In this document: one piece after another, positions 5,747 through 46,059 of the stretch
Layout: every line of letters begins with the position of its first letter
How positions within the stretch are numbered: the stretch's first letter is position 1
From: Vicinamibacterales bacterium
GTDB taxonomy: Bacteria > Acidobacteriota > Vicinamibacteria > Vicinamibacterales > G965249535
Assembly (NCBI GenBank): GCA_965249535.1
Contig: OZ252241.1
Coordinates: 356,673-420,672 of the forward strand
DNA length: 64,000 nt
Direction: 5' to 3'
Position numbers and translations under genes: made by a program
The notes under the pieces: generated by a model
The model's database searches: none
Seen by the model: the letters and a program-made list of their open reading frames with translations, nothing else
What the model was told of the DNA's origin: nothing

Positions 5747-7027
5747 CTAAACTGAAGAGAGCTTATGACCAAGCTTCTCCTTCTTAGTCTTGAGATAGTT
5801 CCTCGTCATTTCAGACACGGGTACCTCGAGCGGCACAGATTCCACGACGGACAAGCCATAGCCTTCCAGGCCAATAAATTTTCTTGGGTTATTCGTAAGC
5901 AGTCTCATACTGCGCACGCCAAGATCTCTAAGAATCTGAGCTCCTATGCCATAGTCTCGCTGATCGGGTTTGAATCCCAATCGCTCGTTAGCTTGAACGG
6001 TATCCAATCCTTCATCCTGAAGCTCATAAGCACGAATTTTATTAGCTAACCCAATTCCTCGACCTTCCTGATTCAAATACAACAGCACACCACGGTCCTC
6101 AGCCGCTATACGTTTTATCGCTGCGTCAAGCTGTTGTCCACAGTCGCATCGAGACGAATGAAAAACATCCCCAGTGAGGCACCTTGAATGAACACGTATT
6201 ATGACGTCCAGACCTTCACGCAAATCACCACGAACCAAAGCAATGTGTGTCTCCTTATCGATCACGCTTTGATAAGCGAATACCCTAAAGGGTCCGTTCT
6301 CCGTTGGTAGATCGGCCACAGCTATTCGTTTGACAAGTCGCTCGTGTCGCATTCGGTACTTGATGAGATCTGCGATCGTTATAATTAACATCTTGTGACG
6401 TTGAGCAAACTTAGTAAGATCTGGCACACGAGCCATCGTTCCGTCGTCGTTCATAATTTCGCAAATCACACCCGCCGGATAGAACCCAGCTATCCGCGCC
6501 AGATCAACTGCAGCTTCCGTCTGTCCAGCTCGAACAAGAACCCCTCCAGACCGCGCTCTCAGTGGAAACATATGCCCCGGTCGTGCTAGATCACTAGGAG
6601 TCGATTTCGGATCGATGGCCACTCGAACAGTTGCAGCGCGATCACCGGCCGAAATACCTGTGCTCGTTGCATGCCTTGCCTCGATGGAAACACAGAAAGC
6701 AGTGCTGAATCGCGCCGTGTTTTTATTCACCATCAAAGGAACATCCAACTCCTCAAGCCGCTCGCCCGTCGTCGGCATACAGATCAGTCCGCGCCCGTAG
6801 CGAGCCATGAAATTGATTGCGGCTGGAGTCACCTTCTCTGCAGCTATAGTCAGATCACCTTCATTCTCTCGATCCTCATCATCCACAACGACGATAAGTT
6901 TACCTAGCCGAACTGCCTCCAACGCTTCCTCGATTGAAGCAAATGGACCATTGCGGGCCGGCCGGTCAGCGATCCTTAAAGACGGTAAAGCTCGTCTCTG
7001 ACGATTCTTACGTTTTTGATCAGGCAT
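5747..7027 (-). CDS. ribBA: bifunctional 3,4-dihydroxy-2-butanone-4-phosphate synthase / GTP cyclohydrolase II
   Basis: [11 protein letters not shown] (DHBP synthase domain) followed by VRVHSxCLTGDVFxSxRCDCGxQL (GCH II zinc site). Confidence 0.95.
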
Positions 7028-10728: not shown

Positions 10729-11361
10729 TTAGTGCAGTTTATTAGGCCACAATACAGCTAAGTTGAGTGTCCTACTCTTAATATCTTCGTCAGTCTTGTA
10801 CATACCAAAGGTTGGTAAGTCGACCTCCCGTGTAATAGCCTCACTCTCATACAGGGTTATGTGGTCAACCGACCATGGCTCAATGGCAACACTAGCGCTT
10901 ACCAGAAGCTGCCTGATGATCCGCTCAGCCCGACCACTCCTTACCTTAACGCGTCCAAGTGTTAGGTGAGCAGAATATTCATGAGCACCAACGTCAAATC
11001 CTAGCGGCTTAAGTCTACCCCCTATTTCATTGCGCAAGGCGACCAGCTGGGCACTTCCATTACCTACGCCAAGCCAGATTATCCTGGGCAAACCCTTACA
11101 AGGGAAAGCACCTGCCCCGAAAATACTTACTCTAAACTCAGTAGTCGTAAGTGGCTCAGCTAAAGCATGGCTCACGGTAACCGCAAGATCCTCATCCACA
11201 TGGCCAAGAAAACTCATAGTCAGATGGAGATTTTGCGTTGGCACCCACCGAATCCTGTGAGCCCAAGACGTGGATGGTAGCCGGCCTCTAAGCAATCGGA
11301 TAACATCCGCTACGGCTCTACGTACATTATTACTGAGGTCAACTGCAATAAAGAGGCGCAC
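10729..11361 (-). CDS. thpR: RNA 2',3'-cyclic phosphodiesterase (2H family, ThpR/LigT)
   Basis: Two HxT motifs (HLTMSF and HLTLGR) at the spacing typical of 2H phosphoesterases. Confidence 0.8.
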   Translation of the reverse strand: MRLFIAVDLSNNVRRAVADVIRLLRGRLPSTSWAHRIRWVPTQNLHLTMSFLGHVDEDLAVTVSHALAEPLTTTEFRVSIFGAGAFPCKGLPRIIWLGVGNGSAQLVALRNEIGGRLKPLGFDVGAHEYSAHLTLGRVKVRSGRAERIIRQLLVSASVAIEPWSVDHITLYESEAITREVDLPTFGMYKTDEDIKSRTLNLAVLWPNKLH

Positions 11362-33278: not shown

Positions 33279-34523
33279 ATGGTTAATATGAGGGAGAAGA
33301 TCTACGTGCCTCCAGTTATTTTTCGTAAAGGACTCGACCTCAAACAAGCCGTTGCCGTTGACCTCGCAACTGACTATCACAGTTCTCTCGTCGAACAAAG
33401 TATCAATGCAGACTACCGCTACAATGTTGGTCGATTAACAGTACAACTTGCCAACGTATTCGGATTTTGTTACGGTGTTGATCGCGCCGTTGATTATGCT
33501 TACCAGGCCCGCTTAAAGTTCGTCGATCGACCTGTGTATTTGACAGGTGAAATAATTCATAATCCCTACGTTAACGAAAAACTAAGAACCGCTGGGGTCC
33601 GCTTTCTAACTGACCCGGATGAGAGTCCAGATTTACTGGGACCAGAAGCGGTTGTGATTCTTCCAGCATTCGGTGTTACGGTGGCGGATCTTGAGCGATA
33701 CGAACGCCAAGGATGTACTCTTGTTGACACGACTTGTGGTTCGGTTCTTAACGTTTGGAAGAATGTCAGACAATACGCTAAAGCTGGATTCACTGCCATA
33801 ATTCATGGAAAAGCCCACCACGAAGAAACCCAAGCAACGGCGTCACAGGCGCTAGCCTTTCCAAATGGAACTTATCTTGTTGTATTGGACCGAGACCAAG
33901 CAGCCATAGTTTGCGATTACATACGAAATGGGAATAGTCGAAAAGAATTCCTCGATCGCTTCAAAAGCGCTGTCTCAGAAAACTTTGATCCAGACGAAGA
34001 CTTACAGCGTGTCGGGCTAGCAAACCAAACAACCATGCTTATGTCTGAATCCCTTGAGATCGGTGAAATGTTTCGGCAAGCAATGATCGATCGATATGGT
34101 GAGTCCGATCTTGCCAACAGATGTCGCTCCTTTGACACGATCTGTAGCGCAACTCAAGATCGCCAGGATGCAGTGACCAAACTCCTCGATAACCACCGAC
34201 TAGACTTGATGGTGGTAGTCGGTGGTTATAACAGCAGCAACACTCGAAATCTTGCCAGAATGTGCGTTAATCGGGTGCCGACCTACCATATCAATCAACC
34301 AGACTGCATCCTGTCGACTACAGAATTACGGCATCGACCCGTCAAGACAAACCAGACCACGCGCAATGTCCACCAAACTCTTGATGAAGAGATCATTGCT
34401 GGCAATTGGCTTCCGCCTACCGGGCCTATAACTATCGGTCTCACTGCCGGTGCGTCTACACCCAACAACATCATCGGCCAAGCCATGAAAAAGCTCGAGC
34501 AGTGCTCAAATAAGAACTCGTGA
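33279..34523 (+). CDS. ispH: 4-hydroxy-3-methylbut-2-enyl diphosphate reductase, long (cyanobacterial/plant-like) form
   Basis: FGFCYGVDRAV, TGEIIHNPxVN, DTTCGSV and ANQTT motifs. At about 410 aa it is longer than the roughly 310-aa E. coli type. Confidence 0.85.
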   Translation: MVNMREKIYVPPVIFRKGLDLKQAVAVDLATDYHSSLVEQSINADYRYNVGRLTVQLANVFGFCYGVDRAVDYAYQARLKFVDRPVYLTGEIIHNPYVNEKLRTAGVRFLTDPDESPDLLGPEAVVILPAFGVTVADLERYERQGCTLVDTTCGSVLNVWKNVRQYAKAGFTAIIHGKAHHEETQATASQALAFPNGTYLVVLDRDQAAIVCDYIRNGNSRKEFLDRFKSAVSENFDPDEDLQRVGLANQTTMLMSESLEIGEMFRQAMIDRYGESDLANRCRSFDTICSATQDRQDAVTKLLDNHRLDLMVVVGGYNSSNTRNLARMCVNRVPTYHINQPDCILSTTELRHRPVKTNQTTRNVHQTLDEEIIAGNWLPPTGPITIGLTAGASTPNNIIGQAMKKLEQCSNKNS

Positions 34524-34609
34524 GCACTCAAAATCTTCCATTGATTCTGGAACACTTCCTATCTTTTAAGTTGGCGAAACGTCTGAAATAAGACTTTGCA
34601 AGTAAACGA

Positions 34610-35083
34610 TCATGTTTCATCGACCTTCAGTAAAAGCTCTCTAATCGTCAATCCAGTCATTGGGTCTACCATATTCGGCGCAATTTCTGCTAGCGGTCGT
34701 AAAACGAAAGCACGTTCGCGGAAGCGAGGATGAGGAAGTTCAATCTCTAAATTTGAAACAATCAGGTCACCCACAAGGATAAGGTCGAGGTCGAGTGTTC
34801 TTGGGGCTCTGTGAAACGGTCTGTCCCTTCCTCGCTCTTGCTCTATGCTCAGGAGATTAGTAAGTAGATCCACTGGTTGAGCCGCTGACAAACCCACAGC
34901 GGCTGCGTTCAGAAACATTCGCTGCGAGCCCATGTCTACGGGCTCCGTTTCAATAAAGCGCGAAACGACAACATCAAGTAGTAAAGATCTTAATCTCTGT
35001 ACGGCGTAGCTTAGGTGATCTTCACGTGCACCCTGATTACTACCGAGTGCAACAGCGATGCGACGAGTCGGGTTCTGCTCCAT
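34610..35083 (-). CDS. folK: 2-amino-4-hydroxy-6-hydroxymethyldihydropteridine pyrophosphokinase
   Basis: IAVALGSNxG, RTLDLDLIL and HPRxxERAFVLxPL motifs. I chose the start at MEQNP; its ATG overlaps the upstream TGA by 1 nt (TGATG). Confidence 0.85.
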   Translation of the reverse strand: MEQNPTRRIAVALGSNQGAREDHLSYAVQRLRSLLLDVVVSRFIETEPVDMGSQRMFLNAAAVGLSAAQPVDLLTNLLSIEQERGRDRPFHRAPRTLDLDLILVGDLIVSNLEIELPHPRFRERAFVLRPLAEIAPNMVDPMTGLTIRELLLKVDET

Positions 35084-35412
35084 CACACACTTTGTTTCTC
35101 CTTGCATGTGATGCAAACACGTGTCCAGGGAATAGCACTAAGTCGAGACGGTGCGATGGGCTCTCCACAATCGAGACATACTCCATACAAACCTTCGTCG
35201 ATACGTCCGAGGGCATCTTCAATCGCTTGAAGAATCTTTGCATCGGTTTGCTTCAATTTAAGTTGAACATGGACATCGTTATTTCCACTTGATTGATCAG
35301 CCAAATCACCCTGGCGTGTGCTCGAGGCCATTGATACTTGCAGAGGCTTCATTCCTTCAATGGACAAAACCTCATTTCTCTTCCTTAGCAGGGCTGCCTT
35401 GTAACCTGACAT
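35083..35412 (-). CDS. DksA/TraR-family C4 zinc-finger protein
   Basis: CLDCGEPIAPSRLSAIPWTRVCITC is CxxC-N17-CxxC, the DksA/TraR finger. The in-frame ATG is at 35412; the track start is a GTG at 35418 inside the tandem repeat. Confidence 0.75.
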   Translation of the reverse strand: MSGYKAALLRKRNEVLSIEGMKPLQVSMASSTRQGDLADQSSGNNDVHVQLKLKQTDAKILQAIEDALGRIDEGLYGVCLDCGEPIAPSRLSAIPWTRVCITCKEKQSV

Positions 35413-35443
35413 ATTCACCTGACATATTCACCTGACATATTCA
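35405..35443. repeat. perfect 13-bp tandem repeat x3 (CCTGACATATTCA) covering the start codon of the DksA-like gene
   Basis: Read directly from the sequence: copies at 35405-35417, 35418-35430 and 35431-35443 are identical. Confidence 0.95.
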
Positions 35444-35530
35444 TTAGTGCTCCTTAGAACACTACCTCCCGATAGCAAGCCTGCGATTATATCATGATGC
35501 CCACAAAACCCATATAATCTAGCCATAACT

Positions 35531-38080
35531 CTACTCAGTGCGCAGCGTTGCCAAAGGTCTATCCATTAGTACATCGAAATTTGCTAGAACACCGACGAGA
35601 CCAACTACCATAACGGTTAGAATAATGCCAGCCAGTATCTGCAGTGACTCGATGTACCACCGAATCTCGAACACGTATGTGCTCAATACCCACGAAAGGA
35701 TTAACGCACCAACCGCGCCAATAATTCCTGCGAGTGTTCCTAGTAGGCCATACTCGATTACTAGCACCTTCATAATCATTCTTGTCGTTGCTCCAAGAGT
35801 CTTCAGAATTGCAACCTCATAGAGACGCTTGAACTTAGTAACTGCAATCGAGCCCACAAGAATTAAAACACCACTCAATAACGCAACAATGCCAACTATT
35901 GAGATAGCCAACGCAACGTAGTCAATGACCCTCTTCACTGTTTTTAGAATGCTCAGCCCATCGATCACAGAAACATTAGGAAAACTTTCCACAAGGGCGC
36001 GCTGAAGACTAGCACGCTCATCAAGTTCACTCGGTCCCTTCAACAATCCAACGAATGTGTGTGGGGCATCATTAAAAACTCCTGGTCGAAACAGGAACAT
36101 GAATCCACCACTTCGTGAATCATCCCAATCGACTTCTCTTATGCTCGTGACCTTGGCGGTCACAATCCTTCCGAGCACATCGAACCGCATTGTGTCTCCA
36201 ACATGAATGCCGAACCGTCGTTCCAGACTCGCCTCAACTGACACCTCTGGTGATGCCGCTGAACTCTCCCCCCAAAACTCACCATCTATTATCCGTTCGT
36301 TCGCCTCTAGTCGATCTCGATATGTTATTGTGTACTCGCGAGCGAGTGAACCTAAGCGGCGAACTTCTTCGAACCCGTCAACGCTGAGTTCACGGCCTCT
36401 AACACCAACTACTCTTGCTCGAAGTATTGGAATAAACTTTGGCACTTTGTTTTGACTTTGTGCCGATATCGTCTCGCGCACTCCAACCACTTGATCTCCC
36501 TGAACGTCAATGAGAAACATATCTGGTGAATCCTCACGTACCTCCAATGCCAACTCCTGTAAAAGATTCACTTGAACCGCTCGTATACCGATTATAGAAA
36601 ACGAACCAAGCCCAACTACAAGGAGGACCATTCGAGTCTGACTCTGTGGTCCGCATAGGTTCTTGACCGCCTGACGTAATGGAAACCAACTCATCAAACT
36701 AAGTGGCCTGAGTGAGCGACTCACTCCAACAGCTGCAAGATGCAGGGCCATAGTGATACCAACGAACCCAGAACAAACGTAAAATCCAACTTCAAGTGAA
36801 GCGGCTTGCCAACTTGCCAACGCCACTAACATAAAGGCGACTAACACCGTGACTCCCAAACGTGTCCAATCAAGCCCAGATCGCGAAGAAATCAAGTCCC
36901 AGCGTAACAGAAGAAAAGGTTTGATTTGACGTACTTCAAAAAGTGGAACAACTGAGAACAAAACCGAAACCATGACTCCAACAGCGATGCCTTGCATCAC
37001 AGCGGAAGTAGTAAGTCCAAGAGAGACCTCTCCGAGACCCGTCGCGAGTGCAACTTCGTGAGTCAATCTTTCGGGAATGGCGACCAAGGTTCCGGCCGCC
37101 ATAATTACACCAAGCAGACTACCACCTAACCCAAGTACCGTAACCTGCATCAAATAGGTCGCTAGGATCTGTTTTGTTGTTGCTCCCAGACACTTCAAAA
37201 TAGCGATACTTTTGATCTTCTGATGAACAAAAACGCGCGTAACACTCCAAACACCGATACCACCAAGGATCACAACGACAAACCCTACAAGACTGAGATA
37301 ATTCTCAGCCTTTAATAGGGTTTCCGTAACACGATCTTCAGCGGTACGATACGAACGAACATTTACATACTCATTCCTTAGGTTCCGCTTCAACTGTTGC
37401 ATTAACGTAGCAATCTTTTCTTCTGGAATCTTAAGAGCAATCTCACGTCTCGCTCGACTAGCCATACTCACGAGACCTGTTTCATTCAGCTCCTTGTAAC
37501 CAATTAACACTCGTGGACCTAAACTAAAGGCGCCTAACCGACTGCCAGGTTCGCTTAGAATGACACCGCGTATGGTGAACTTAGTAGCACCAATGATAAT
37601 TTTATCGCCGACATCAATACCCAGATGTGTTAACAACTCCGGCCTCACAAGGGCTCCTGATTCGTTGAGCATCCCGTGGAAATATACTTGTCCTGATTCA
37701 AGAACAACGTCACCATGAATAGGAAATCCTGACTGAACACCACGAAGCTCCACCACTGTCGTCAACGTCTTCCATTCGTCGGCCGACCTGACCATAGTGG
37801 TCAGGTCAATGGATTCCATTTTCTCTAATATCCCAACACCTTCGAGTGTTTGCTCGATGATCTTTCGTCCCTCAGCTGTCCATGGTTGCTGTGTCTGAAT
37901 CAGCACATCAGCACCAGTCAAAGTTTTCGCCTCAGCCGTAAGCGATGTCCGAACACTTTGGATAAGCGAACGGAGAACCACTATCGAAGAGACACCTACT
38001 GCGATACAAAAGAAGAAAAAGATGAAACGCCTCCAGGACGTTCGCATTTCACGGAAAACCATTCGGAAGATGAAACCCAT
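35531..38080 (-). CDS. ABC transporter permease, YbbP-like (two FtsX domains, about 10 TM)
   Basis: 849 aa with two FtsX-type 4-TM modules separated by large periplasmic domains. Lies 4 nt downstream of the ATPase gene. Confidence 0.8.
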   Translation of the reverse strand: MGFIFRMVFREMRTSWRRFIFFFFCIAVGVSSIVVLRSLIQSVRTSLTAEAKTLTGADVLIQTQQPWTAEGRKIIEQTLEGVGILEKMESIDLTTMVRSADEWKTLTTVVELRGVQSGFPIHGDVVLESGQVYFHGMLNESGALVRPELLTHLGIDVGDKIIIGATKFTIRGVILSEPGSRLGAFSLGPRVLIGYKELNETGLVSMASRARREIALKIPEEKIATLMQQLKRNLRNEYVNVRSYRTAEDRVTETLLKAENYLSLVGFVVVILGGIGVWSVTRVFVHQKIKSIAILKCLGATTKQILATYLMQVTVLGLGGSLLGVIMAAGTLVAIPERLTHEVALATGLGEVSLGLTTSAVMQGIAVGVMVSVLFSVVPLFEVRQIKPFLLLRWDLISSRSGLDWTRLGVTVLVAFMLVALASWQAASLEVGFYVCSGFVGITMALHLAAVGVSRSLRPLSLMSWFPLRQAVKNLCGPQSQTRMVLLVVGLGSFSIIGIRAVQVNLLQELALEVREDSPDMFLIDVQGDQVVGVRETISAQSQNKVPKFIPILRARVVGVRGRELSVDGFEEVRRLGSLAREYTITYRDRLEANERIIDGEFWGESSAASPEVSVEASLERRFGIHVGDTMRFDVLGRIVTAKVTSIREVDWDDSRSGGFMFLFRPGVFNDAPHTFVGLLKGPSELDERASLQRALVESFPNVSVIDGLSILKTVKRVIDYVALAISIVGIVALLSGVLILVGSIAVTKFKRLYEVAILKTLGATTRMIMKVLVIEYGLLGTLAGIIGAVGALILSWVLSTYVFEIRWYIESLQILAGIILTVMVVGLVGVLANFDVLMDRPLATLRTE

Positions 38081-38084
38081 GTGG

Positions 38085-38807
38085 TTAATAGCTAGGTTGG
38101 CCTTCTTTTTGCTTTACCTCTTTCCAAAACCCCGTCTCATCACCCTGAATTCGAGCGATCTTACCGTCTCGCATCGAAAGTGTAGCGTCTGCATGATCCG
38201 TCAACGATCTATCGTGAGTAACCAAAACGATCGTCGTGCCGCGAATTCGATTAGCCTTAGAAAGCAGTTCCACAACGTGCTGGCTGTTAGCGCTGTCCAG
38301 ATTTCCTGTCGGTTCATCCGCCAGAAGAATAGGCGGATCGTTCGCCATGGCCCGAGCGATCGCCACCCTCTGTTGCTCACCACCCGATAGCTGCCATGGA
38401 TAGTGATTCTCGCGATCATTAAGCCCAACCTCAGCAAGCAGAGCCCTTGCCCTAGAAGTACCATCATCCACACCAGAAATCTCTAAGGGAATCAAAATAT
38501 TTTCTAGAGCTGTCAGCGATGGCATCAGGTGAAAAAATTGAAACACAAAGCCAATCTTGATTCCACGTAGCTTGGCAAGAGCATCCTCACTCAGAACGGT
38601 TATATCAACATCATCGATAATTATTTGTCCGGTTGATGGACTGTCTAATCCAGCTATTAGACCGAGCAGTGTAGATTTACCACTACCCGATGGTCCTACC
38701 AAGGCTAGATACTGACCGGAAGGAATTGTAAGATCCAGACTATGAAGAATAGTCAACTGCTCATTACCACTCGGAACTGTTTTCGACACTCCTCTCAATT
38801 CGATCAT
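38085..38807 (-). CDS. ABC transporter ATP-binding protein, YbbA/LolD-like
   Basis: Walker A GPSGSGKST, signature LSGGEQQR, Walker B ILLADEPT. Confidence 0.9.
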   Translation of the reverse strand: MIELRGVSKTVPSGNEQLTILHSLDLTIPSGQYLALVGPSGSGKSTLLGLIAGLDSPSTGQIIIDDVDITVLSEDALAKLRGIKIGFVFQFFHLMPSLTALENILIPLEISGVDDGTSRARALLAEVGLNDRENHYPWQLSGGEQQRVAIARAMANDPPILLADEPTGNLDSANSQHVVELLSKANRIRGTTIVLVTHDRSLTDHADATLSMRDGKIARIQGDETGFWKEVKQKEGQPSY

Positions 38808-38905
38808 AATCCATCCGCAACTAGCTCAGAGGTGACGTAACACCATAACCACACGGACGCTGACCTGAATTCGACCAATTCATCCGGATAGATCCATTTC
38901 TCAAA

Positions 38906-39619
38906 TTAGTAACCTTCGTTTATCCTGTTTGCCTCTAACATTGGTTGAAGAGTCTGCCAGAGATATTCGGCAATCACCTCGGCACCCTCGGTATTTGGAT
39001 GAATACCATCGGACTGGTTCAGATCAGGATTCCCGGCGACATCAGTTAACAGAAATGGTGCAAAGGCAATATCGTACTCGTCAGCAAGTCCGCTGAATAC
39101 TTCTCGAAATTGTTCCGTATACAGCGTTCCAAAGTTCGGCGGAGCCTCCATACCAGCTAATAGAACAGCTACTCCACTTTCCATTGCACGTTCTATAACC
39201 TTTGAAAGGTTCTCCCTCATCTGCATGACTGGCAAACCGCGCAGCCCATCATTCGCGCCAAGCGCCACGATCAAGAACCTTACGTCACCTGCTAATGCCC
39301 ATCCCAGTCGTCTCAAACCGCCGGCAGACGTATCTCCGGACACCCCAGCACTAATCACATCGAGTTCATAACCAGCTTCGGTTACAAGTTTCTGCAATAT
39401 TGATGGATAAGCTTCATCGTTACGAAGACCTAGGCCAACAGTAAGACTGTCACCAAGTGCTACGATACGTGGCCGGCTGACCCCAAATTCAGTGCTGTTG
39501 GTTTTTGCTTCAGAAGCTGATATCGATTCCGGTGTCCCCTCCTTGCAGGATACCAGTAGGATTATAGTAATCGCCAAACTGAAAAGAGATTGAAAATGGT
39601 TCTGTCGAGTCACAGCCAT
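38906..39619 (-). CDS. SGNH/GDSL arylesterase-thioesterase (TesA-like), probable lipoprotein
   Basis: VALGDSLTVG (block I Ser), GANDG (block III) and DGIHPN (block V). Signal with LVSC. The tesA/ybbA/ybbP association is known from E. coli. Confidence 0.8.
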   Translation of the reverse strand: MAVTRQNHFQSLFSLAITIILLVSCKEGTPESISASEAKTNSTEFGVSRPRIVALGDSLTVGLGLRNDEAYPSILQKLVTEAGYELDVISAGVSGDTSAGGLRRLGWALAGDVRFLIVALGANDGLRGLPVMQMRENLSKVIERAMESGVAVLLAGMEAPPNFGTLYTEQFREVFSGLADEYDIAFAPFLLTDVAGNPDLNQSDGIHPNTEGAEVIAEYLWQTLQPMLEANRINEGY

Positions 39620-39685
39620 AGTATCTTCATTATCCTACAGATAGACCTTTGCACACTAAGACCTAACCGTTACACACTAACGATT

Positions 39686-40081
39686 TCACAATATTCGACC
39701 CCTAGTGAGGTTCTCTCTCAACACATACGAATAGATAAACACATTAATCAATAGCAATAGAACACCCAGAACTATCTGCGTATCGCGTGTTAGATTGTCC
39801 GGATAAAGTATGGATATCGCATACTGTTGGAGAAAATCGCCTTTATAATCATTTTCACTACTCGCTGCGCGAAACCAATTCTCTAACGGTGTCAGTGGGC
39901 AGATCACATCTAACCATTCAACAGAAACACCCCAGATTACGGCCGGGAGATGTACCCAAGTCAGACGCTTCCACTTAAGCACAAATAATCCACCTGCAAT
40001 TACGAAGAGGACAAAAGTCAGATGGAGCACTACGACCGCGTCCGCCAGTAGTCTGTACAGCACTATGATGCCCCTTGCCAA
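39686..40081 (-). CDS. DUF2784-type small membrane protein
   Basis: 131 aa with four hydrophobic segments and a CPLTPLENWxR motif. Confidence 0.6.
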   Translation of the reverse strand: MARGIIVLYRLLADAVVVLHLTFVLFVIAGGLFVLKWKRLTWVHLPAVIWGVSVEWLDVICPLTPLENWFRAASSENDYKGDFLQQYAISILYPDNLTRDTQIVLGVLLLLINVFIYSYVLRENLTRGRIL

Positions 40082-40183
40082 GGTAGAAATCCGTTCAAGA
40101 TTTGGCTGATATTTTACAAGCGATATAACTAAGAGACTACACTAACAACTGATAGGATCTCAGAGTGTGGCTTAAAATTGTCG

Positions 40184-40191
40184 AACTTGTC
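40184..40191. repeat. target-site duplication, left copy (AACTTGTC)
   Basis: Identical octamer at 42505-42512. Each copy is immediately outside an IR. Confidence 0.8.
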
Positions 40192-40208
40192 GGTAGTGGT
40201 CAAGTTTG
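40192..40208. repeat. terminal inverted repeat, transposase-stop end (GGTAGTGGTCAAGTTTG)
   Basis: The reverse complement of 42488-42504 is GGCAGTGGTCAAGTTTG, a 16/17 match. The GGT.GTG start resembles the IS1 IR. Confidence 0.85.
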
Positions 40209-40210
40209 AA

Positions 40211-41053
40211 TTAGGCGGCGACTTCTGATTTGGCGTCGAGCAGGCTCACGATATCGGCAATCTCCCACAGCCGATCCGTGACGCCAGCTGCCTGCGCGGG
40301 CGTCGTGCGGAGTGTCTTATGAATTCGGACGAAGTTGTAAAACATATAATGAAGTGCGACCGCGTGCATGTGATTCTCGATCTTCTTACTGAACCCGTTC
40401 GAGAGGCGCGCGAACCGCTTCATGCTCATCCGCATGGTGAGGTTCTGCCGCTCGACGTAGGACGTGCTCACGTGCTTCGGGTCAGGATGCCCGCTGATGG
40501 TTTTCACGTTGATCCCGAGGCACGGCGCGGGACTGTAGGTGCGCTCGGGATCGCTGGACCCGTAGATCTTGTGCAGCATGGCGTAGTCGATGCCGGTGCA
40601 GAAGGCGCTCTCCACAGCTTCCAGGTAGACGCGATACCCGTCCGTGGTCAACTGGACGCGGGTGGTCAGCCGGTCGGCCAGGTCGTGCATGAACGTGTAG
40701 GCCGAGCCGAGGTCGCGGCCACCGACGAGCCACGACGGGACAAGCTTCGTGTCGGCATCAAGCGCGACCCAGGTCCACACGTCGCCAGCCACGTCGGGGG
40801 CGTTCTTCGCGGTCGGCACGTTCTTCTGCTTGGCATAGCAGAACTGCCAGATCTCGTCGCACTGAATACGGCGGCTCGCCAGGTTCCGCAGCGTGCGGTC
40901 CTGATAGGCCGTACACGCCGTCCCGAGATCGGCCAGGAGCTTGAGGATCGTCGGCTTCGAGACGCCCGTCATGCGGGCTGTGGCGTTGATGCCGTTCCCT
41001 TCGACCAGGGCCGCCACGACGCGCACGCGACGGTCAATTGAGAGCCTGTTCAT
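40211..41053 (-). CDS. IS1-family transposase (HTH + DDE, single ORF)
   Basis: MNRLSIDRRVRVVAALVEGNGINATARMTGVSKPTILKLL..., CDEIWQFCYAKQKN, DVWTWVALDADTKL and YVERQNLTMRMSMKRFARLSNGFSKKIENH are hallmarks of this transposase group. Confidence 0.85.
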   Translation of the reverse strand: MNRLSIDRRVRVVAALVEGNGINATARMTGVSKPTILKLLADLGTACTAYQDRTLRNLASRRIQCDEIWQFCYAKQKNVPTAKNAPDVAGDVWTWVALDADTKLVPSWLVGGRDLGSAYTFMHDLADRLTTRVQLTTDGYRVYLEAVESAFCTGIDYAMLHKIYGSSDPERTYSPAPCLGINVKTISGHPDPKHVSTSYVERQNLTMRMSMKRFARLSNGFSKKIENHMHAVALHYMFYNFVRIHKTLRTTPAQAAGVTDRLWEIADIVSLLDAKSEVAA

Positions 41054-41067
41054 AAGGGTATTGTATC

Positions 41068-41616
41068 TTGAACGCTCAAGCATTACAAGAGCTTTCAGAC
41101 TACGGGCGTGGGAGATGTGCGGCAGCTATTGAGGCTGTAGGCCGTCGTAATAAGCCTATTGCCGAGGTCTGCGAAACCAGCGTTCCGGTGCAAACCATCA
41201 AGAAGATTCTCGGAGAACTACTGAACGAATATCGCCAGGGCAACGTCGATCTTCCCTGCGATGTTCGAGGGTTTATTTTTGAGATGAAGTCCGGTCGTTC
41301 AACATACGGTTTCTTTCGAGAATCGTGGGCCCTGCGAGCCTATAGCGTCGTTCGCGGTGAATGGGCGTTTACTTTGCAGGACAGGGAGTGGATTCAGGGG
41401 CTTCTATTCGGATACACGCCTCACGTTATTCAGCGTTTCGTTGATGCAGCGACCGCCGCAGGACGCTTTACCGAGTCGCCCTTACCAAAGTCCAAGTCAC
41501 AGCGCTTCCATGTCCTGAGCATGGAGGAAAACGCTCGCCTTTGCTCAAGGCGATTTCGTATATGCAACATCCGGTCGTCTCGTATATCCCCGACTGACTG
41601 CTCGTCTGTCCGGTAG
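41068..41616 (+). CDS. hypothetical protein (IS cargo), divergent from the transposase
   Basis: 182-aa ORF with a TTG start. I recognise no family. Coding status is inferred only from length and plausible composition. Confidence 0.35.
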   Translation: MNAQALQELSDYGRGRCAAAIEAVGRRNKPIAEVCETSVPVQTIKKILGELLNEYRQGNVDLPCDVRGFIFEMKSGRSTYGFFRESWALRAYSVVRGEWAFTLQDREWIQGLLFGYTPHVIQRFVDAATAAGRFTESPLPKSKSQRFHVLSMEENARLCSRRFRICNIRSSRISPTDCSSVR

Positions 41617-41804
41617 TAGGCATTTGGCCACCTGTTGAATAATTCAAAGCACTGGATTGTGCTTGACCGCTCTATGCTGCTACAGTTCTCCCCGTCCCGC
41701 AAACCGGCGCGACCCGACATCGGGCCACTCGCCGAATACAACACCCCTCCTAGGGGAATAGGCGGGAACCTGCATCTACGCGTGCGGTTTGTGTGACGAC
41801 TGAC

Positions 41805-41828
41805 CCGGTGACCATTTCCGGTCACCGG
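41805..41828 (+). promoter_or_regulatory. perfect 9-bp inverted repeat CCGGTGACC-atttcc-GGTCACCGG, 15 nt upstream of the next ATG
   Basis: Read directly from the sequence. No U-tract follows it. It could be an operator or an RNA hairpin. Confidence 0.4.
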
Positions 41829-41843
41829 CGAAGGGATATCGCC

Positions 41844-42212
41844 ATGCAGAAAACGCTCGTTATCGTTTTGGCGCTGGTAGCCCTCAGCGTACCGATCGTT
41901 GCGCAAACACTGGAGGAACGGCGAGAGCTATTCAATACATTAATTACGGATGAAGACAGCCTGCGTGAGAATATTCAGGCAAAATGCGAGGATGAATGGC
42001 CCATCGACTTTCGAATGCAGAAGTACTGTCAAGACCAGCAGCTAGAAGGGTATACCAACCTTGCAAAGATTTGGAAAGACGCCGTAACGAACATCAAGGC
42101 GACCGCCGTCCAATGCGTCCTTGACTGGCCAGAAGATTTATTGTTCGATTGGACCATGATTCACTACTGCACGAATGATCAGATCACGGCCTGGAAAGCC
42201 TTGCAACACTGA
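41844..42212 (+). CDS. small secreted four-Cys protein with an internal duplication (IS cargo)
   Basis: Signal peptide MQKTLVIVLALVALSVPIVAQ. The motif is repeated: KCEDEWPIDFRMQKYCQDQQ and QCVLDWPEDLLFDWTMIHYCTNDQ. Confidence 0.55.
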   Translation: MQKTLVIVLALVALSVPIVAQTLEERRELFNTLITDEDSLRENIQAKCEDEWPIDFRMQKYCQDQQLEGYTNLAKIWKDAVTNIKATAVQCVLDWPEDLLFDWTMIHYCTNDQITAWKALQH

Positions 42213-42229
42213 CAGGGTTGCTGAGACGG

Positions 42230-42436
42230 CTAGCCCTTCCTGGCATTCCATCGTGCCCGAGCCCCTTTTTTCGCAATGGCGGATCGCTTCTTTGCAGACA
42301 GCTTCTCCGCACGGGCCTTGCCGCCCTTGAGGCGCCCGAGCGCGACGGCGGCGGGGTTCCTCTTCCCCTCCGACTGCTCGATGAGGGCCTGGACGCCTCT
42401 GAACGCCGCCTCGTTCGGATCGTCGGTGATGCTTGT
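42230..42436 (-). pseudogene. start-less remnant encoding a Lys/Arg-rich tail (...NPAAVALGRLKGGKARAEKLSAKKRSAIAKKGARARWNARKG*)
   Basis: Manual translation. The frame opens after a TGA and contains no ATG, GTG or TTG. The tail resembles the GGKAR...RW C-termini of many small proteobacterial proteins. The track ORF 42138..42506 is in a different frame. Confidence 0.4.
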
Positions 42437-42487
42437 TCAGTGTGGCATGCGCGTAGAGTACCATATCGGCCACGGGTGACAACAATC

Positions 42488-42504
42488 CAAACTTGACCAC
42501 TGCC
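42488..42504. repeat. terminal inverted repeat, distal end (CAAACTTGACCACTGCC)
   Basis: Partner of 40192-40208. Confidence 0.85.
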
Positions 42505-42512
42505 AACTTGTC
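42505..42512. repeat. target-site duplication, right copy (AACTTGTC)
   Basis: Identical to 40184-40191. Confidence 0.8.
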
Positions 42513-42582
42513 GAACTCAAAACTGGCTAACCGTTTTTCGAGTACGATCAGTCTATATAACCATCAATCGTAACTCACTCTG

Positions 42583-43548
42583 ATGATGAAACACCTCACA
42601 GGTCCGCTTGTGATTATCGCTTGGGGGTTAATGATGGAGGCAGGAGCCACTCAACGTTTCGAAGAAGCGCACGGGCTGACAACAGTTCCTGGAATTAAGG
42701 TAGGACACTACACACTAAGCGAACGTTTAACGGGATGTACGGTCGTACTGGCTGAAAACGTGGCTGTGGCTGGTGTCGACGTCCGAGGAGCGGCACCTGG
42801 TACCAGAGAAACAGACCTTCTCGATCCTAAGAATACCGTTCAGAAAGTTCACGCGATCGTCCAATCTGGCGGTAGCGCCTTCGGTCTAAATACGGCGGCT
42901 GGTGTCATGCGTTACCTCGAAGAACGAAATATCGGTTTCGAGACCCGGGTTGCGAGAATACCTATCGTGCCTGCAGCTATCCTTTACGATCTCTCCGTTG
43001 GTGAGAATCCAAGAACCCGCCCAACAGGCGAATGTGGTTATCGAGCCGCGCTGACTGCTAGTACCGGACCTGTTGCCCAGGGTAACGTGGGTGCTGGAGC
43101 TGGAGCAACTATCGGTAAACTTAGAGGCCAAGATCGTGCCATGAAAGCCGGTATCGGAAGTATCTCACTAAGACATTCGAACGGGTTGATTGTGGCAGCA
43201 CTTGTGGCAGTTAATTCGATCGGAGACATCATCGATCCTTCTACCGGTAATGTTGTAGCAGGCGTTCGAACACCAGATGGACGAAAGCTCGCCGACGCCC
43301 GTCTACTTCTACGGTCGGGAACCTCTGGCGAAGCACAACCACTCGAAAACACAACATTAGGAGTTGTAGCGACTAACGCACACCTAACCAAAGTCCAAGT
43401 CAGCCAAATGGCCCATGACGGCTATGCGCGCGCTATCACGCCCGTGCACACCCCACACGATGGTGACACTATCTTCTCACTTGCGACTGGTACTTGGTCA
43501 GGTTCGGTCGACATGCTAACAATCGGGGCACTCGCGGCTGATGCCGTA
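42583..43548 (+). pseudogene. S58/DmpA-type (P1 family) peptidase, 5' 96 % of the gene, interrupted near its 3' end
   Basis: Signal peptide, then GIKVGHYT, GCTVVL, DVRGAAPGTRETDLL, GGSAFGL, NTTLGVVATNA (self-processing Thr region) and HTPHDGDTIFSLATG. After ...IGALAADAV the ORF reads in frame into transposase sequence. Confidence 0.75.
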
Positions 43549-44392
43549 CACGAATCCTGCATCGCGCACCTCGAATCTCTCCGTTGGGGCACGGACCCAG
43601 GCTGCCCGCACTGCGGGTCGATGGGTGTGGCCCGAAAAGCGGACGGGACACGGATCGGCCGCTGGAATTGCCACGATTGTAAATCGAGTTTCAACGTCCT
43701 GCACGGTACGATCTTCCAAAAGACGAAGATCCCGTTGCAGAAGTGGTTTCTAGCCATCGGCATCATCTTCAACGCGAAGAAGGGCGTCTCGAGCTACCAA
43801 CTCGCACGCGACCTCTCCATCAACCAGAAGTCAGCGTGGTATCTCGGGATGCGCATTCGGGTCGCGCTGAAAACAGACACCACGGGGCTATTGAGTGGCA
43901 TCGTCGAAGCCGATGAGTGTTACGTGGGGGGCGAAGCCTAGGTGGAACGCGCACGACCCGTTACAGCGCTCTCCACGCGGTCGAGGCACCAGGAAGCTCC
44001 CGATTGTCGGGGTGGTTGAACGTGGGGGCCGTGTGGTGGCGATACCAGCCGCGAAGCGTGAACTCACCGCCAATGGCTTGAAGCGGTTCATTATGAACCA
44101 CGTGAACCCGACCGGCACGGTGCTCATGACCGACGAGTATCCAGGCTACCGACAGATCGCGACGGTCATGCAGCATGCCGTCATCAAGCACACGCGGCAT
44201 TATGTGGACGGCGACATTCACACCAACACGATTGAGGGGTTCTGGTCGCTGGTGAAACGTGCGTGGTTTGGCTCGCACCACCACTACCGGAGCACCTATG
44301 CCCCGCTCTACATCGCCGAAACATGCGCCAGCTACAACAACCGACACGTGGCGGATCGATTTGAGCCGTTCCTCCGGTCGGTGCTGGCATGA
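43549..44392 (+). pseudogene. IS1595-family (ISXO2-like) transposase, lacking its own start and frameshifted in a G6 run
   Basis: N-terminal Zn-ribbon region: ESCIAHLESLRWGTDPGCPHCGS...RWNCHDCKSSFNVLHGTIFQKTKIPLQKWFLAI...GVSSYQLARDLSINQKSAWYLGMRIR. DECYVG then breaks at GGGGGG (43926-43931). The DDE part continues in ORF 43895..44392: IVGVVERGGRVVA...MTDEYPGY...HTNTIEGFWSLVKR. Confidence 0.75.
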
Positions 44393-46059
44393 ACACGCTC
44401 TCGTACGGCGACTGCCTGACGGTTATTCAGGGCATGAAGGCGCAAAGCGTCGATCTGATTTACCTCGACCCACCGTTTAACTCCAACAAGAACTACCACA
44501 ACATCTACAAAGACGAAACCGGGCGACCACTTCCTGACCAAGTAGAAGCGTTCTGTGACATGTGGACGCTCGACGAGGAACGAGAGCGCGCATTACGTCA
44601 CATGCCTGTGCTGATGCGCAAGCAGGGAATCGATGATGACACGGTAGAATTCTGGCGAATCTGGATGAACGCGCTTCGTAAGACGAACCCGGCCCTGCTC
44701 GCCTACCTCTCGTACATGGTCGAGCGGATCGTGCACCTGCGCGTCCTGTTGCGTTCTACAGGTTCGCTCTACCTACACTGTGACCCGACCGCGAGCCACT
44801 ACATTAAAGTCATGCTGGATGGCGTCTTTGGGCACCAGAATTTCAGAAACGAGATCGTGTGGAAGCGCACATACGCACACGGCGGGGTTGAACGTTGGGG
44901 TAGCGTTCACGACACGCTTTTGATGTACTCAAAGTCAGATGCCTGTCGTTGGACTGGAATGACGCAAGACTATGCCCCTGAATATCTAGACGAACGGTAC
45001 GACAAGCGCGACGATCGCGGCCGTTATCAGGAGATCGTGATGACAGGCCCAGGTGTGTCTGGTGGCGCTTCTGGTCAACCGTGGAAAGGCTATGACCCTA
45101 CAGCGGCCGGAAGGCATTGGGGTGTGCCTCGCGCTGCATTGAAAGCACTTGAGAAAGAAGGCGTAGATATTCCACCAGGGCTACATGATCGCCTTGACCT
45201 ATTACACCACCACGGGTTTGTCTACATTCCAAGAAAACCCGGCGGCGTGCCACGATTTAAGCGCCATATTGATGGTGCTAGCGGTTTACCGGTCCAAGAC
45301 ATAATTTCAGACATTCCTCCGATCAACTCACAGGCAAAAGAGCGCATGGGTTACGCAACTCAGAAGCCACTTGCCTTGCTTGAGCGCATCATTAAGGCCA
45401 GCACAAACAAAGGCGACGTGGTGCTTGATCCATTCTGCGGGTGTGCGACCACACTGGAAGCGGCGAACAGGCTTGATCGTAAGTGGATCGGTATCGACAT
45501 AGCCATTCACGCGATCAAGCGCGTGGCTAGACTCCGACTGACGGATAGATGTGGGCTCGTGGAAGGTACCGACTACGAGATTAAGGGAGTCCCGCGTGAC
45601 ATCGAAGGCGCGAAGGATCTGTGGACCCGCGATAAATATCACTTCCAGAAGTGGGCCGTTGAACAGGTGGAAGGGTTTGTCACAACGAAGAGAACGGCTG
45701 ACGGCGATATCGACGGGCGACTCTACTTCGCGGTGCCAGACATACGCGATCTTCAGAGCATGGTCATTGAGGTCAAGGGCGGTGCGAACGTGTCTATAGC
45801 CGACGTGCGGGCACTCGGGAACGTCCTCGACCGCAACACGGCACTGCTGGCCGGGCTGATTGTCATGGAGGGCCTCGGGCCGGTGAAAACGCGCAACTTC
45901 AAGCGGCTCATGGCGGAAGCGGGACACCTGAAAATCCTAGGCGTTAAGTATCCGCGGATGCAGATGTTGACGGTTGATCAGATCTTCGCCGGGGATCGCT
46001 TTATCACAGCGAGTGTCGCGGCGCGACGGGCGGTAAAGCCGAAACTCCCGCTCGGATAA
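44389..46059 (+). CDS. beta-class (motif IV before motif I) N6-adenine/N4-cytosine DNA methyltransferase fused to a C-terminal Mrr-like PD-(D/E)XK domain
   Basis: SVDLIYLDPPFNS (motif IV) at the N-terminus and VLDPFCGCATTLEAA (motif I, AdoMet binding) at about aa 345. The C-terminus reads YEIKGVPRD...KYHFQKWAVEQV...DGDIDGRLYF...MVIEVKGG...LLAGLIVME, like a restriction-endonuclease (Mrr_cat) core. The ATG overlaps the transposase TGA (ATGA at 44389-44392). Confidence 0.8.
   Translation: MNTLSYGDCLTVIQGMKAQSVDLIYLDPPFNSNKNYHNIYKDETGRPLPDQVEAFCDMWTLDEERERALRHMPVLMRKQGIDDDTVEFWRIWMNALRKTNPALLAYLSYMVERIVHLRVLLRSTGSLYLHCDPTASHYIKVMLDGVFGHQNFRNEIVWKRTYAHGGVERWGSVHDTLLMYSKSDACRWTGMTQDYAPEYLDERYDKRDDRGRYQEIVMTGPGVSGGASGQPWKGYDPTAAGRHWGVPRAALKALEKEGVDIPPGLHDRLDLLHHHGFVYIPRKPGGVPRFKRHIDGASGLPVQDIISDIPPINSQAKERMGYATQKPLALLERIIKASTNKGDVVLDPFCGCATTLEAANRLDRKWIGIDIAIHAIKRVARLRLTDRCGLVEGTDYEIKGVPRDIEGAKDLWTRDKYHFQKWAVEQVEGFVTTKRTADGDIDGRLYFAVPDIRDLQSMVIEVKGGANVSIADVRALGNVLDRNTALLAGLIVMEGLGPVKTRNFKRLMAEAGHLKILGVKYPRMQMLTVDQIFAGDRFITASVAARRAVKPKLPLG

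Follow-up and report, generated by a model that had tools for sequence, protein, structure and literature searches.

A 64-kb stretch of a Vicinamibacterales genome (contig OZ252241.1; hereafter the window) carries about 2.3 kb of DNA between a DUF2784 gene and an S58 peptidase gene that raises the question of what has moved: a short insertion sequence (IS) of the IS1 type, or a larger unit whose terminal repeats also enclose passenger genes. The original prediction, made from the letters alone, described a complete IS1-family element with inverted repeats, an 8-bp target-site duplication and cargo. Our analysis leads to much the same answer, in that what occupies positions 40192-42504 is very probably a complete transporter insertion sequence (tIS), one copy from a large IS1-related subgroup.

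The element is 2,313 bp long and is bounded by inverted repeats and a perfect 8-bp duplication, AACTTGTC (Table 1). Re-reading the coordinates reproduced both features: GGTAGTGGTCAAGTTTG (40192-40208) agrees with GGCAGTGGTCAAGTTTG, the reverse complement of 42488-42504, at 16 of 17 positions, and the longer arms (40192-40212 and 42484-42504) agree at 19 of 21 and were ranked by a repeat search as the best inverted repeat of the region. With up to three mismatches allowed, the 17-mer occurs at these two places and nowhere else in the window, where shuffled sequences lead one to expect 0.19 occurrences. The repeat tips, GGTAGTG and GGCAGTG, both fit GGnnnTG, the repeat-tip pattern of the IS1 family in ISfinder, and recur in 63 related elements. 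By itself the 8-mer AACTTGTC is not rare (four copies in the window, 2.6 expected); it carries weight because a copy abuts the tip of each repeat.

An exact-protein cluster look-up placed the window proteins on a 2.84-Mb contig and close relatives of them on contigs of 3.06, 2.19 and 1.94 Mb. Two of the latter, L177 and L180, provided direct proof of insertion. Both are 99.2% identical to window positions 34000-40192 and 98.5-99.3% identical from 42505 onward, and both lack 40192-42504 together with one copy of the duplication, keeping a single AACTTGTC. The L180 sequence ...GGCTTAAAATTGTCGAACTTGTCGAACTCAAAACTGG... is exactly the empty-site join that had been predicted from the window (AACTTGTC at 6892-6899), and the L177 site (AACTTGTC at 6618-6625) is the same except for two nearby single-nucleotide polymorphisms. 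These empty sites prove the boundaries, demonstrate that the 8-bp duplication was made by the insertion and bear out the earlier suggestion that acquisition was recent, as the element entered after the host genome split from these two 99.2%-identical relatives. A metagenome scan for the empty site with the S58 protein revealed only homologs of at most 71% identity with different synteny. As originally described, the insertion splits the 180 bp that separate the divergent DUF2784 and S58 genes, at distances of 102 nt and 70 nt from their respective starts. A consensus scan placed a promoter-like site pointing to S58 at 40149-40178, now 2.3 kb distant from that gene, and S58 expression may have been affected.

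A second copy of the 2.3-kb unit, of the kind that the original prediction had proposed to look for, lies in locus L165, where the whole unit is 96.3% identical over 2,324 bp and has different flanks. The near repeat of this copy (2340-2375) lacks its outer 9-10 bp and lies beside an intact IS1595-family transposase gene; its own transposase gene has three single-base indels which, in a long-read assembly at 5x, are possibly errors. In the window copy, the passengers inside the repeats (a 182-aa protein and a secreted 122-aa protein) are unrelated to transposition and have no transposition-related domains, and they move together with the IS, since L165 has the same unit elsewhere and the empty sites lack the unit as a whole. 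The 2.3 kb moves as one unit, and the description as a cargo-carrying 'transporter' IS holds.

The same architecture was found well beyond these two copies. We surveyed 80 loci from reference genomes, mostly Acidobacteriota and also Planctomycetota, Nitrospira, Proteobacteria and Actinobacteria, with transposases 57-97% identical, and found family-type repeat pairs in 63 of them (consensus, GGTAGTGG(N)TCAGTTTG). Exact 8-bp duplications flank 55 of these bounded elements, with 9 bp in three further cases and 7 bp in one. The elements are 2,055 to 5,078 bp long (median, 2,937). Between the far repeat and the transposase ATG lie 632 to 4,193 bp (median, 1,488), and between the transposase stop and the near repeat tip 12 to 1,481 bp. 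All 63 relatives are long-armed, and the long arm is therefore the ancestral architecture and not a one-off capture; the size of 0.8-1.2 kb against which the original prediction had measured this element is not applicable to the subgroup. The closest relatives (L001-L004; transposases 93-97% identical) have the same layout, with the far repeat 1.4-1.8 kb upstream and the near repeat past the stop, and each has its own 8-bp duplication (GCCAAGAC, GTCCTTAC, CATTTTTC and GAAAATCG). Plasmids of cultured bacteria carry such elements as well, including one of 3,370 bp in Mesorhizobium loti (duplication CGCTGGTG), whose far-end gene, orfA, is annotated as 'histone H1', and one of 2,634 bp and the same architecture in Acidiphilium multivorum.

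The transposase had been assigned to the IS1 type, and it proved to be a distant member. It narrowly passes the Pfam model DDE_Tnp_IS1 (PF03400; 25.6 bits versus a gathering score of 24.1) and scores 59.3 bits (E = 4.8e-16) with the NCBIfam IS1 model (NF033558), under the cutoff of 100. There are more than 8,000 homolog clusters, and where JGI and NCBI have assigned a name, it is 'IS1 family transposase'. The putative catalytic residues D66 (DE.W), D138 (QLTTD) and E201 (ERQNLTMRM) are invariant across 114 homologs and all intact in the window copy, and the 8-bp duplication falls within the 8-9 bp of the IS1 family. The classical IS1 group is defined by insA/insB -1 frameshifting and a length of 0.74-1.2 kb; a single open reading frame (ORF) of 280 aa and a length of 2,313 bp exclude the element from that group, but not from single-ORF or long IS1 subgroups. 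No zinc finger was found in the window transposase. 'IS1 family' thus denotes a distant subgroup for this transposase. Its gene is preceded by a candidate promoter (Table 1), from which a leaderless transcript is predicted, and conservation among six relatives with different cargo starts exactly at the -35 hexamer, which suggests that this block (41060-41088) functions as a promoter.

Guanine plus cytosine (GC) make up 57% of the element as a whole and about 65% of its transposase gene, versus a window baseline of 46-50%. The earlier claim of a GC-richer interior is clear for the transposase gene only, because the right flank, comprising S58, an IS1595 remnant and a methylase gene, is likewise raised in GC (0.55-0.56). 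The 40-46 kb stretch as a whole has 0.55-0.56, versus 0.46-0.50 elsewhere. The composition of the element further suggests a GC-rich donor lineage, and the closest transposase relative (97% identity) belongs to a Vicinamibacterales (Acidobacteriota) metagenome-assembled genome (MAG).

The arm from the far repeat to the transposase gene measures about 1.45 kb, of which about 1.1 kb is variable cargo. At E<=1e-3, 64 representative homologs of the 182-aa protein were found, and none of the Pfam families matched it; one protein that is 67% identical (P0149) occupies the equivalent slot of L169 and L170 beside an 86%-identical transposase, and L001 and L003 have another gene of 105-111 aa in that slot with only the first seven codons in common. 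Seven homologs (57-95% identity) were found for the protein of the second cargo gene, orfC; P0142 in L165 and P0145 in L166, the two that were examined in context, both lie inside elements of the same family. The orfC protein is also 29% identical to the C-terminal repeat of a 249-aa cargo protein of L003. Pfam and NCBIfam yielded no match for either cargo protein or for the orfB and orfD genes of relatives. Overall, cargo is unlike between elements whose transposases are 84-97% identical, and its turnover is therefore fast; this turnover appears to take place between conserved modules, possibly by recombination between related elements.

Ten elements of the family carry a ClpP-like SDH-type serine protease, six a proteasome-subunit-like protein and four an XRE-IrrE/M78 regulator; SecB, P63C and DUF1508 are also among the recurrent cargo, with examples in L076, L068, L083, L172, L173, L003 and L166. 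Transfer RNA (tRNA) genes lie inside the repeat boundaries of L008 (3924-3996, minus strand) and L021 (5949-6020, plus strand), so some family members carry tRNA cargo. The cargo of the window copy is interrupted by a conserved non-coding block (41652-41760), which is 73-94% identical to the closest relatives although the genes on either side differ. Substitutions in this block are without codon-position bias, and neither compensatory pairs nor covariation was found in it (folding z-score, -0.65). We rejected a structured RNA for this block, and with it the candidate sRNA-Xcc1 (RF02221), which scored 27.9 bits versus a gathering score of 53 and had no match in four related loci.

Two ORFs and a gene remnant had been reported inside the element, and all are present, but the remnant is not decayed cargo: it is the conserved orfA, stopped at codon 4. 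This gene adjoins the far repeat on the transposase strand, and its product is a small basic protein (about 75 aa; motif, KNPAAVALGRLGGLKGGKARAEKLS...IAKKAA.ARW). By tblastn, the window orfA is 90% identical to the intact orfA of L001 and has an in-frame stop (MPH*TSITDD...); it is intact in the 96%-identical L165 copy. We identified at least 4,709 orfA homologs, none with a Pfam family. A hidden Markov model (HMM) of orfA matches 62 of 71 elements, with 48 matches on the transposase strand and 14 on the other strand, leaving nine elements without a match. On the transposase strand, orfA is usually the immediate neighbour of the far repeat and starts at a median of 72 nt from the repeat tip. 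Homologs of orfA from an Actinobacteria MAG and a Hydrogenedentes MAG are both located in elements of the same type, with transposases 57% identical. An AlphaFold model revealed four helices (predicted local distance difference test score, 67) and is too weak for a fold search. A HEAT-like assignment was rejected, as the PDB profile search matched only designed alphaRep proteins via an AAVALG.GG motif, which we took as chance.

How far do other explanations account for these observations? The 8-mer alone does occur four times in the window, but a chance match of repeats and duplication, with nothing mobile between them, is refuted by the existence of empty sites, by the second copy and by dozens of relatives that are flanked by duplications of their own, and has practically no probability left. 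It is also highly improbable that an ordinary IS of about 0.9 kb, with its true end near 41060-41130, mobilized the adjacent DNA via a surrogate distal repeat. A sequence just upstream of the ATG, GCGTTCAAGAT, loosely resembles the GTGGTCAAGTT stretch of the repeat, but repeat-like matches upstream of the transposase gene are at background level: the best in the window reaches 10 of 17 positions, and across 66 elements the best match is 8.74 of 17 versus a background of 8.71 +/- 0.95. No repeat lies closer than 632 bp to the transposase start in any of the 63 relatives, and the module of far repeat plus orfA is conserved across phyla. The original prediction had singled out this interval, and it contains no internal repeat.

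Several observations weigh against a complete IS1-related copy: the IS1 model matches are weak (Pfam, 1.5 bits over threshold; NCBIfam, well under cutoff), no InsA/InsB frameshift arrangement was found in the window element, and orfA is inactivated in this copy, which would no longer be autonomous if orfA is needed for movement. Membership of the IS6/IS26 family would fit the 8-bp duplication, and the repeats of some relatives begin GGCACTGG; among the hallmarks of IS6 are duplications of 8 bp and repeats that open with GG, such as GGCACTG. The transposase also matches two IS6 models, PF13610 (DDE_Tnp_IS240) at 23.4 bits and NF033587 at 33.3 bits. However, both scores are under their thresholds (gathering score of 27 and cutoff of 125, respectively) and below those of the IS1 models, the homologs are named IS1 family by NCBI and JGI and the repeat tip fits GGnnnTG, making this assignment very unlikely. 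More plausible, if still rather unlikely, is that the window copy is a dead relic, inserted by transposition and now unable to move by itself, because orfA is disrupted and the sequence ahead of the transposase gene has been replaced. It has a TGA at codon 4 of orfA and a 9-bp deletion, whereas L165 keeps the gene intact, and the presence of an orfA-like gene in 62 of 71 elements suggests selection for it. On the other hand, the transposase ORF, the DDE residues and the promoter-like block are intact, and a single mismatch in 17 positions separates the two repeats; orfA may be dispensable, given the nine elements without an HMM match and the 14 with a match on the other strand; and the stop-codon allele could be a sequencing error. 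Judged from sequence, orfA may contribute to movement and the window copy may still be mobile.

We therefore return to a complete tIS copy as the preferred explanation. Its single-ORF DDE transposase would bind DNA through the N-terminal helix-turn-helix, recognize the two terminal repeats of about 20 bp (GGTAGTGGTCAAGTTTG) and catalyse transposition with D66, D138 and E201. Everything between the repeats would be inserted at a target cleaved with an offset of 8 bp between the strands, and the AACTTGTC duplication would result from repair of this stagger. The layout can be described as one module of far repeat and orfA, another of promoter-like block, transposase gene and near repeat, and a variable cargo bay between them. 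In the window copy, this bay holds the genes of the secreted cysteine-rich protein and the 182-aa protein, and orfA is prematurely stopped.

Some of the insertion sites also share a signal. Of 62 independent insertions whose flanks were compared (elements L005-L083, L002-L004, L166-L168, L172 and L173), 20 have an exact GTCAA in the left flank or TTGAC in the right flank at a distance of exactly 7 nt from the 8-bp duplication, and none has it on both sides. Every other offset between 0 and 29 gives a count of 0-1, and about 0.1 is expected by chance. GTCAA is found at positions 8-12 of the repeat of the window-type element, and the window's own target is without the signal. The target itself is a natural tandem repeat, (A)AACTTGTCG AACTTGTCG AACT (window 40175-40191 and 42505-42517; empty sites of L177 and L180), and 7 of the 8 positions of the duplicated AACTTGTC match AACTTGAC, a stretch within the element's terminal repeat.

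At this locus, the element is the mark of a very recent gene transfer that brought in two foreign genes and cut S58 off from most of its upstream region. More broadly, widespread elements of soil bacteria that are labelled only 'IS1 family transposase' are cargo carriers of 2-5 kb with defined ends, in which cargo turns over faster than the transposase diverges, and annotation of the transposase alone misses both cargo and boundaries. The conserved orfA and the GTCAA target signal provide leads on the regulation and targeting of these elements. Transposase clusters numbering more than 8,000 and orfA clusters numbering at least 4,700 suggest how large the subgroup is. Only tentatively, and with more doubt than confidence, do we propose that it is a very large cross-phylum IS1-like subgroup, undescribed as such, with two end modules and an exchangeable bay, orfA as a new accessory factor and GTCAA-guided targeting.

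Table 1. Features of the element and its target site, in window coordinates.
Feature	Position	Strand	Basis or remark
Target-site duplication, left copy AACTTGTC	40184-40191	+	read directly; single copy at empty sites
Terminal inverted repeat by the transposase stop (IRR)	40192-40212	+	core GGTAGTGGTCAAGTTTG at 40192-40208
Transposase gene, 280 aa, single ORF, N-terminal helix-turn-helix, D66/D138/E201	40211-41053	-	profile matches and homologs
Candidate transposase promoter, TTGTAA, 17-nt spacer, TACAAT	41060-41088	-	ATG 7 nt past the -10 hexamer; consensus scan
Cargo gene 1, 182-aa protein, unnamed family	41068-41616	+	divergent from transposase gene; start codon inside promoter block
Conserved non-coding block, about 105 nt	41652-41760	.	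alignment; common only to closest relatives
Cargo gene 2 (orfC), 122-aa cysteine-rich protein with signal peptide	41844-42212	+	
orfA pseudogene	42230-42448	-	TGA at codon 4 (42437-42439); 9-bp deletion relative to L165
Terminal inverted repeat distal to the transposase gene (IRL)	42484-42504	-	core GGCAGTGGTCAAGTTTG, minus strand 42504 to 42488
Target-site duplication, right copy AACTTGTC	42505-42512	+	read directly; single copy at empty sites

Other differences between loci were noted around the element. An M20-family peptidase gene lies between DUF2784 and S58 in the distant loci L085, L090, L092, L093, L098, L099 and L106, where S58 is 64-68% identical; the window and its close relatives are without it. 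The window also has a specific 139-bp deletion at 43548|43549 (corresponding to 11144-11282 on the reverse strand of L177). Both 99%-identical relatives retain what this deletion removed, namely the 3' end and stop of S58, the left end of an IS1595 element and the first 11 codons of its transposase, and through the 139-bp loss the S58 peptidase is fused in frame to the zinc ribbon of the IS1595 transposase (452-aa ORF, 42583-43941). The IS1595-family transposase gene (in the stretch 43549-46059) is frameshifted near 43895-43941, and an N6/N4 DNA methyltransferase gene (44389-46059) follows directly, overlapping its stop. This pair is common to all three related genomes and may represent an IS1595-type tIS whose passenger is the methylase gene; terminal repeats were sought for the IS1595-plus-methylase unit and none was found.

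Among known systems, the element resembles IS1 of Escherichia coli in its IS1-profile DDE transposase, GGnnnTG tips and 8-bp (occasionally 9-bp) duplications. The motifs DE.W, TTDG..Y and ERQNL..R are conserved in 114 homologs of the window transposase, and similar motifs occur in InsB of IS1. E. coli IS1 is 768 bp long, produces its transposase by insA/insB frameshifting and has a zinc finger in InsA; the window element differs in having one 280-aa ORF, no zinc finger, a 1.45-kb arm and a score short of the NCBIfam IS1 cutoff. ISfinder lists long IS1-family members, the 'ISMhu11' subgroup.

IS6/IS26 elements are alike in their 8-bp duplications, single transposase ORF with an N-terminal helix-turn-helix, GG-starting repeats and weak IS6 profile matches, but the IS6 scores of the window transposase are under threshold and under its IS1 scores. 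IS6 elements measure 0.7-0.9 kb and almost never have passenger genes. Only one such case for IS6 is noted in PMC7986276. As in Tn3-type unit transposons, terminal repeats enclose a transposase and accessory genes that move as one; unlike them, the window element has no resolvase, res site, Tn3-type transposase or 5-bp duplication, and its size and transposase are IS-like.

In layout the element parallels tIS, IS copies with passenger genes in the IS1595 and IS1 families, an established category for which PMC3129680, PMC7986276 and PMC9330008 cite Siguier, Gagnevin and Chandler 2009. As in other tIS, the repeats of the window element enclose genes that have no part in transposition and move along with it. 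The difference is that the cargo-carrying form is the rule in this subgroup (all 63 elements with mapped ends) and that a non-transposase gene, orfA, is conserved at the far end. We found no published description, ISfinder aside, of three family-wide features, namely the conservation of orfA, the arrangement in two modules and the signal at target sites. Because tIS are already established and long IS1 members are known, we file the element under the known tIS category.

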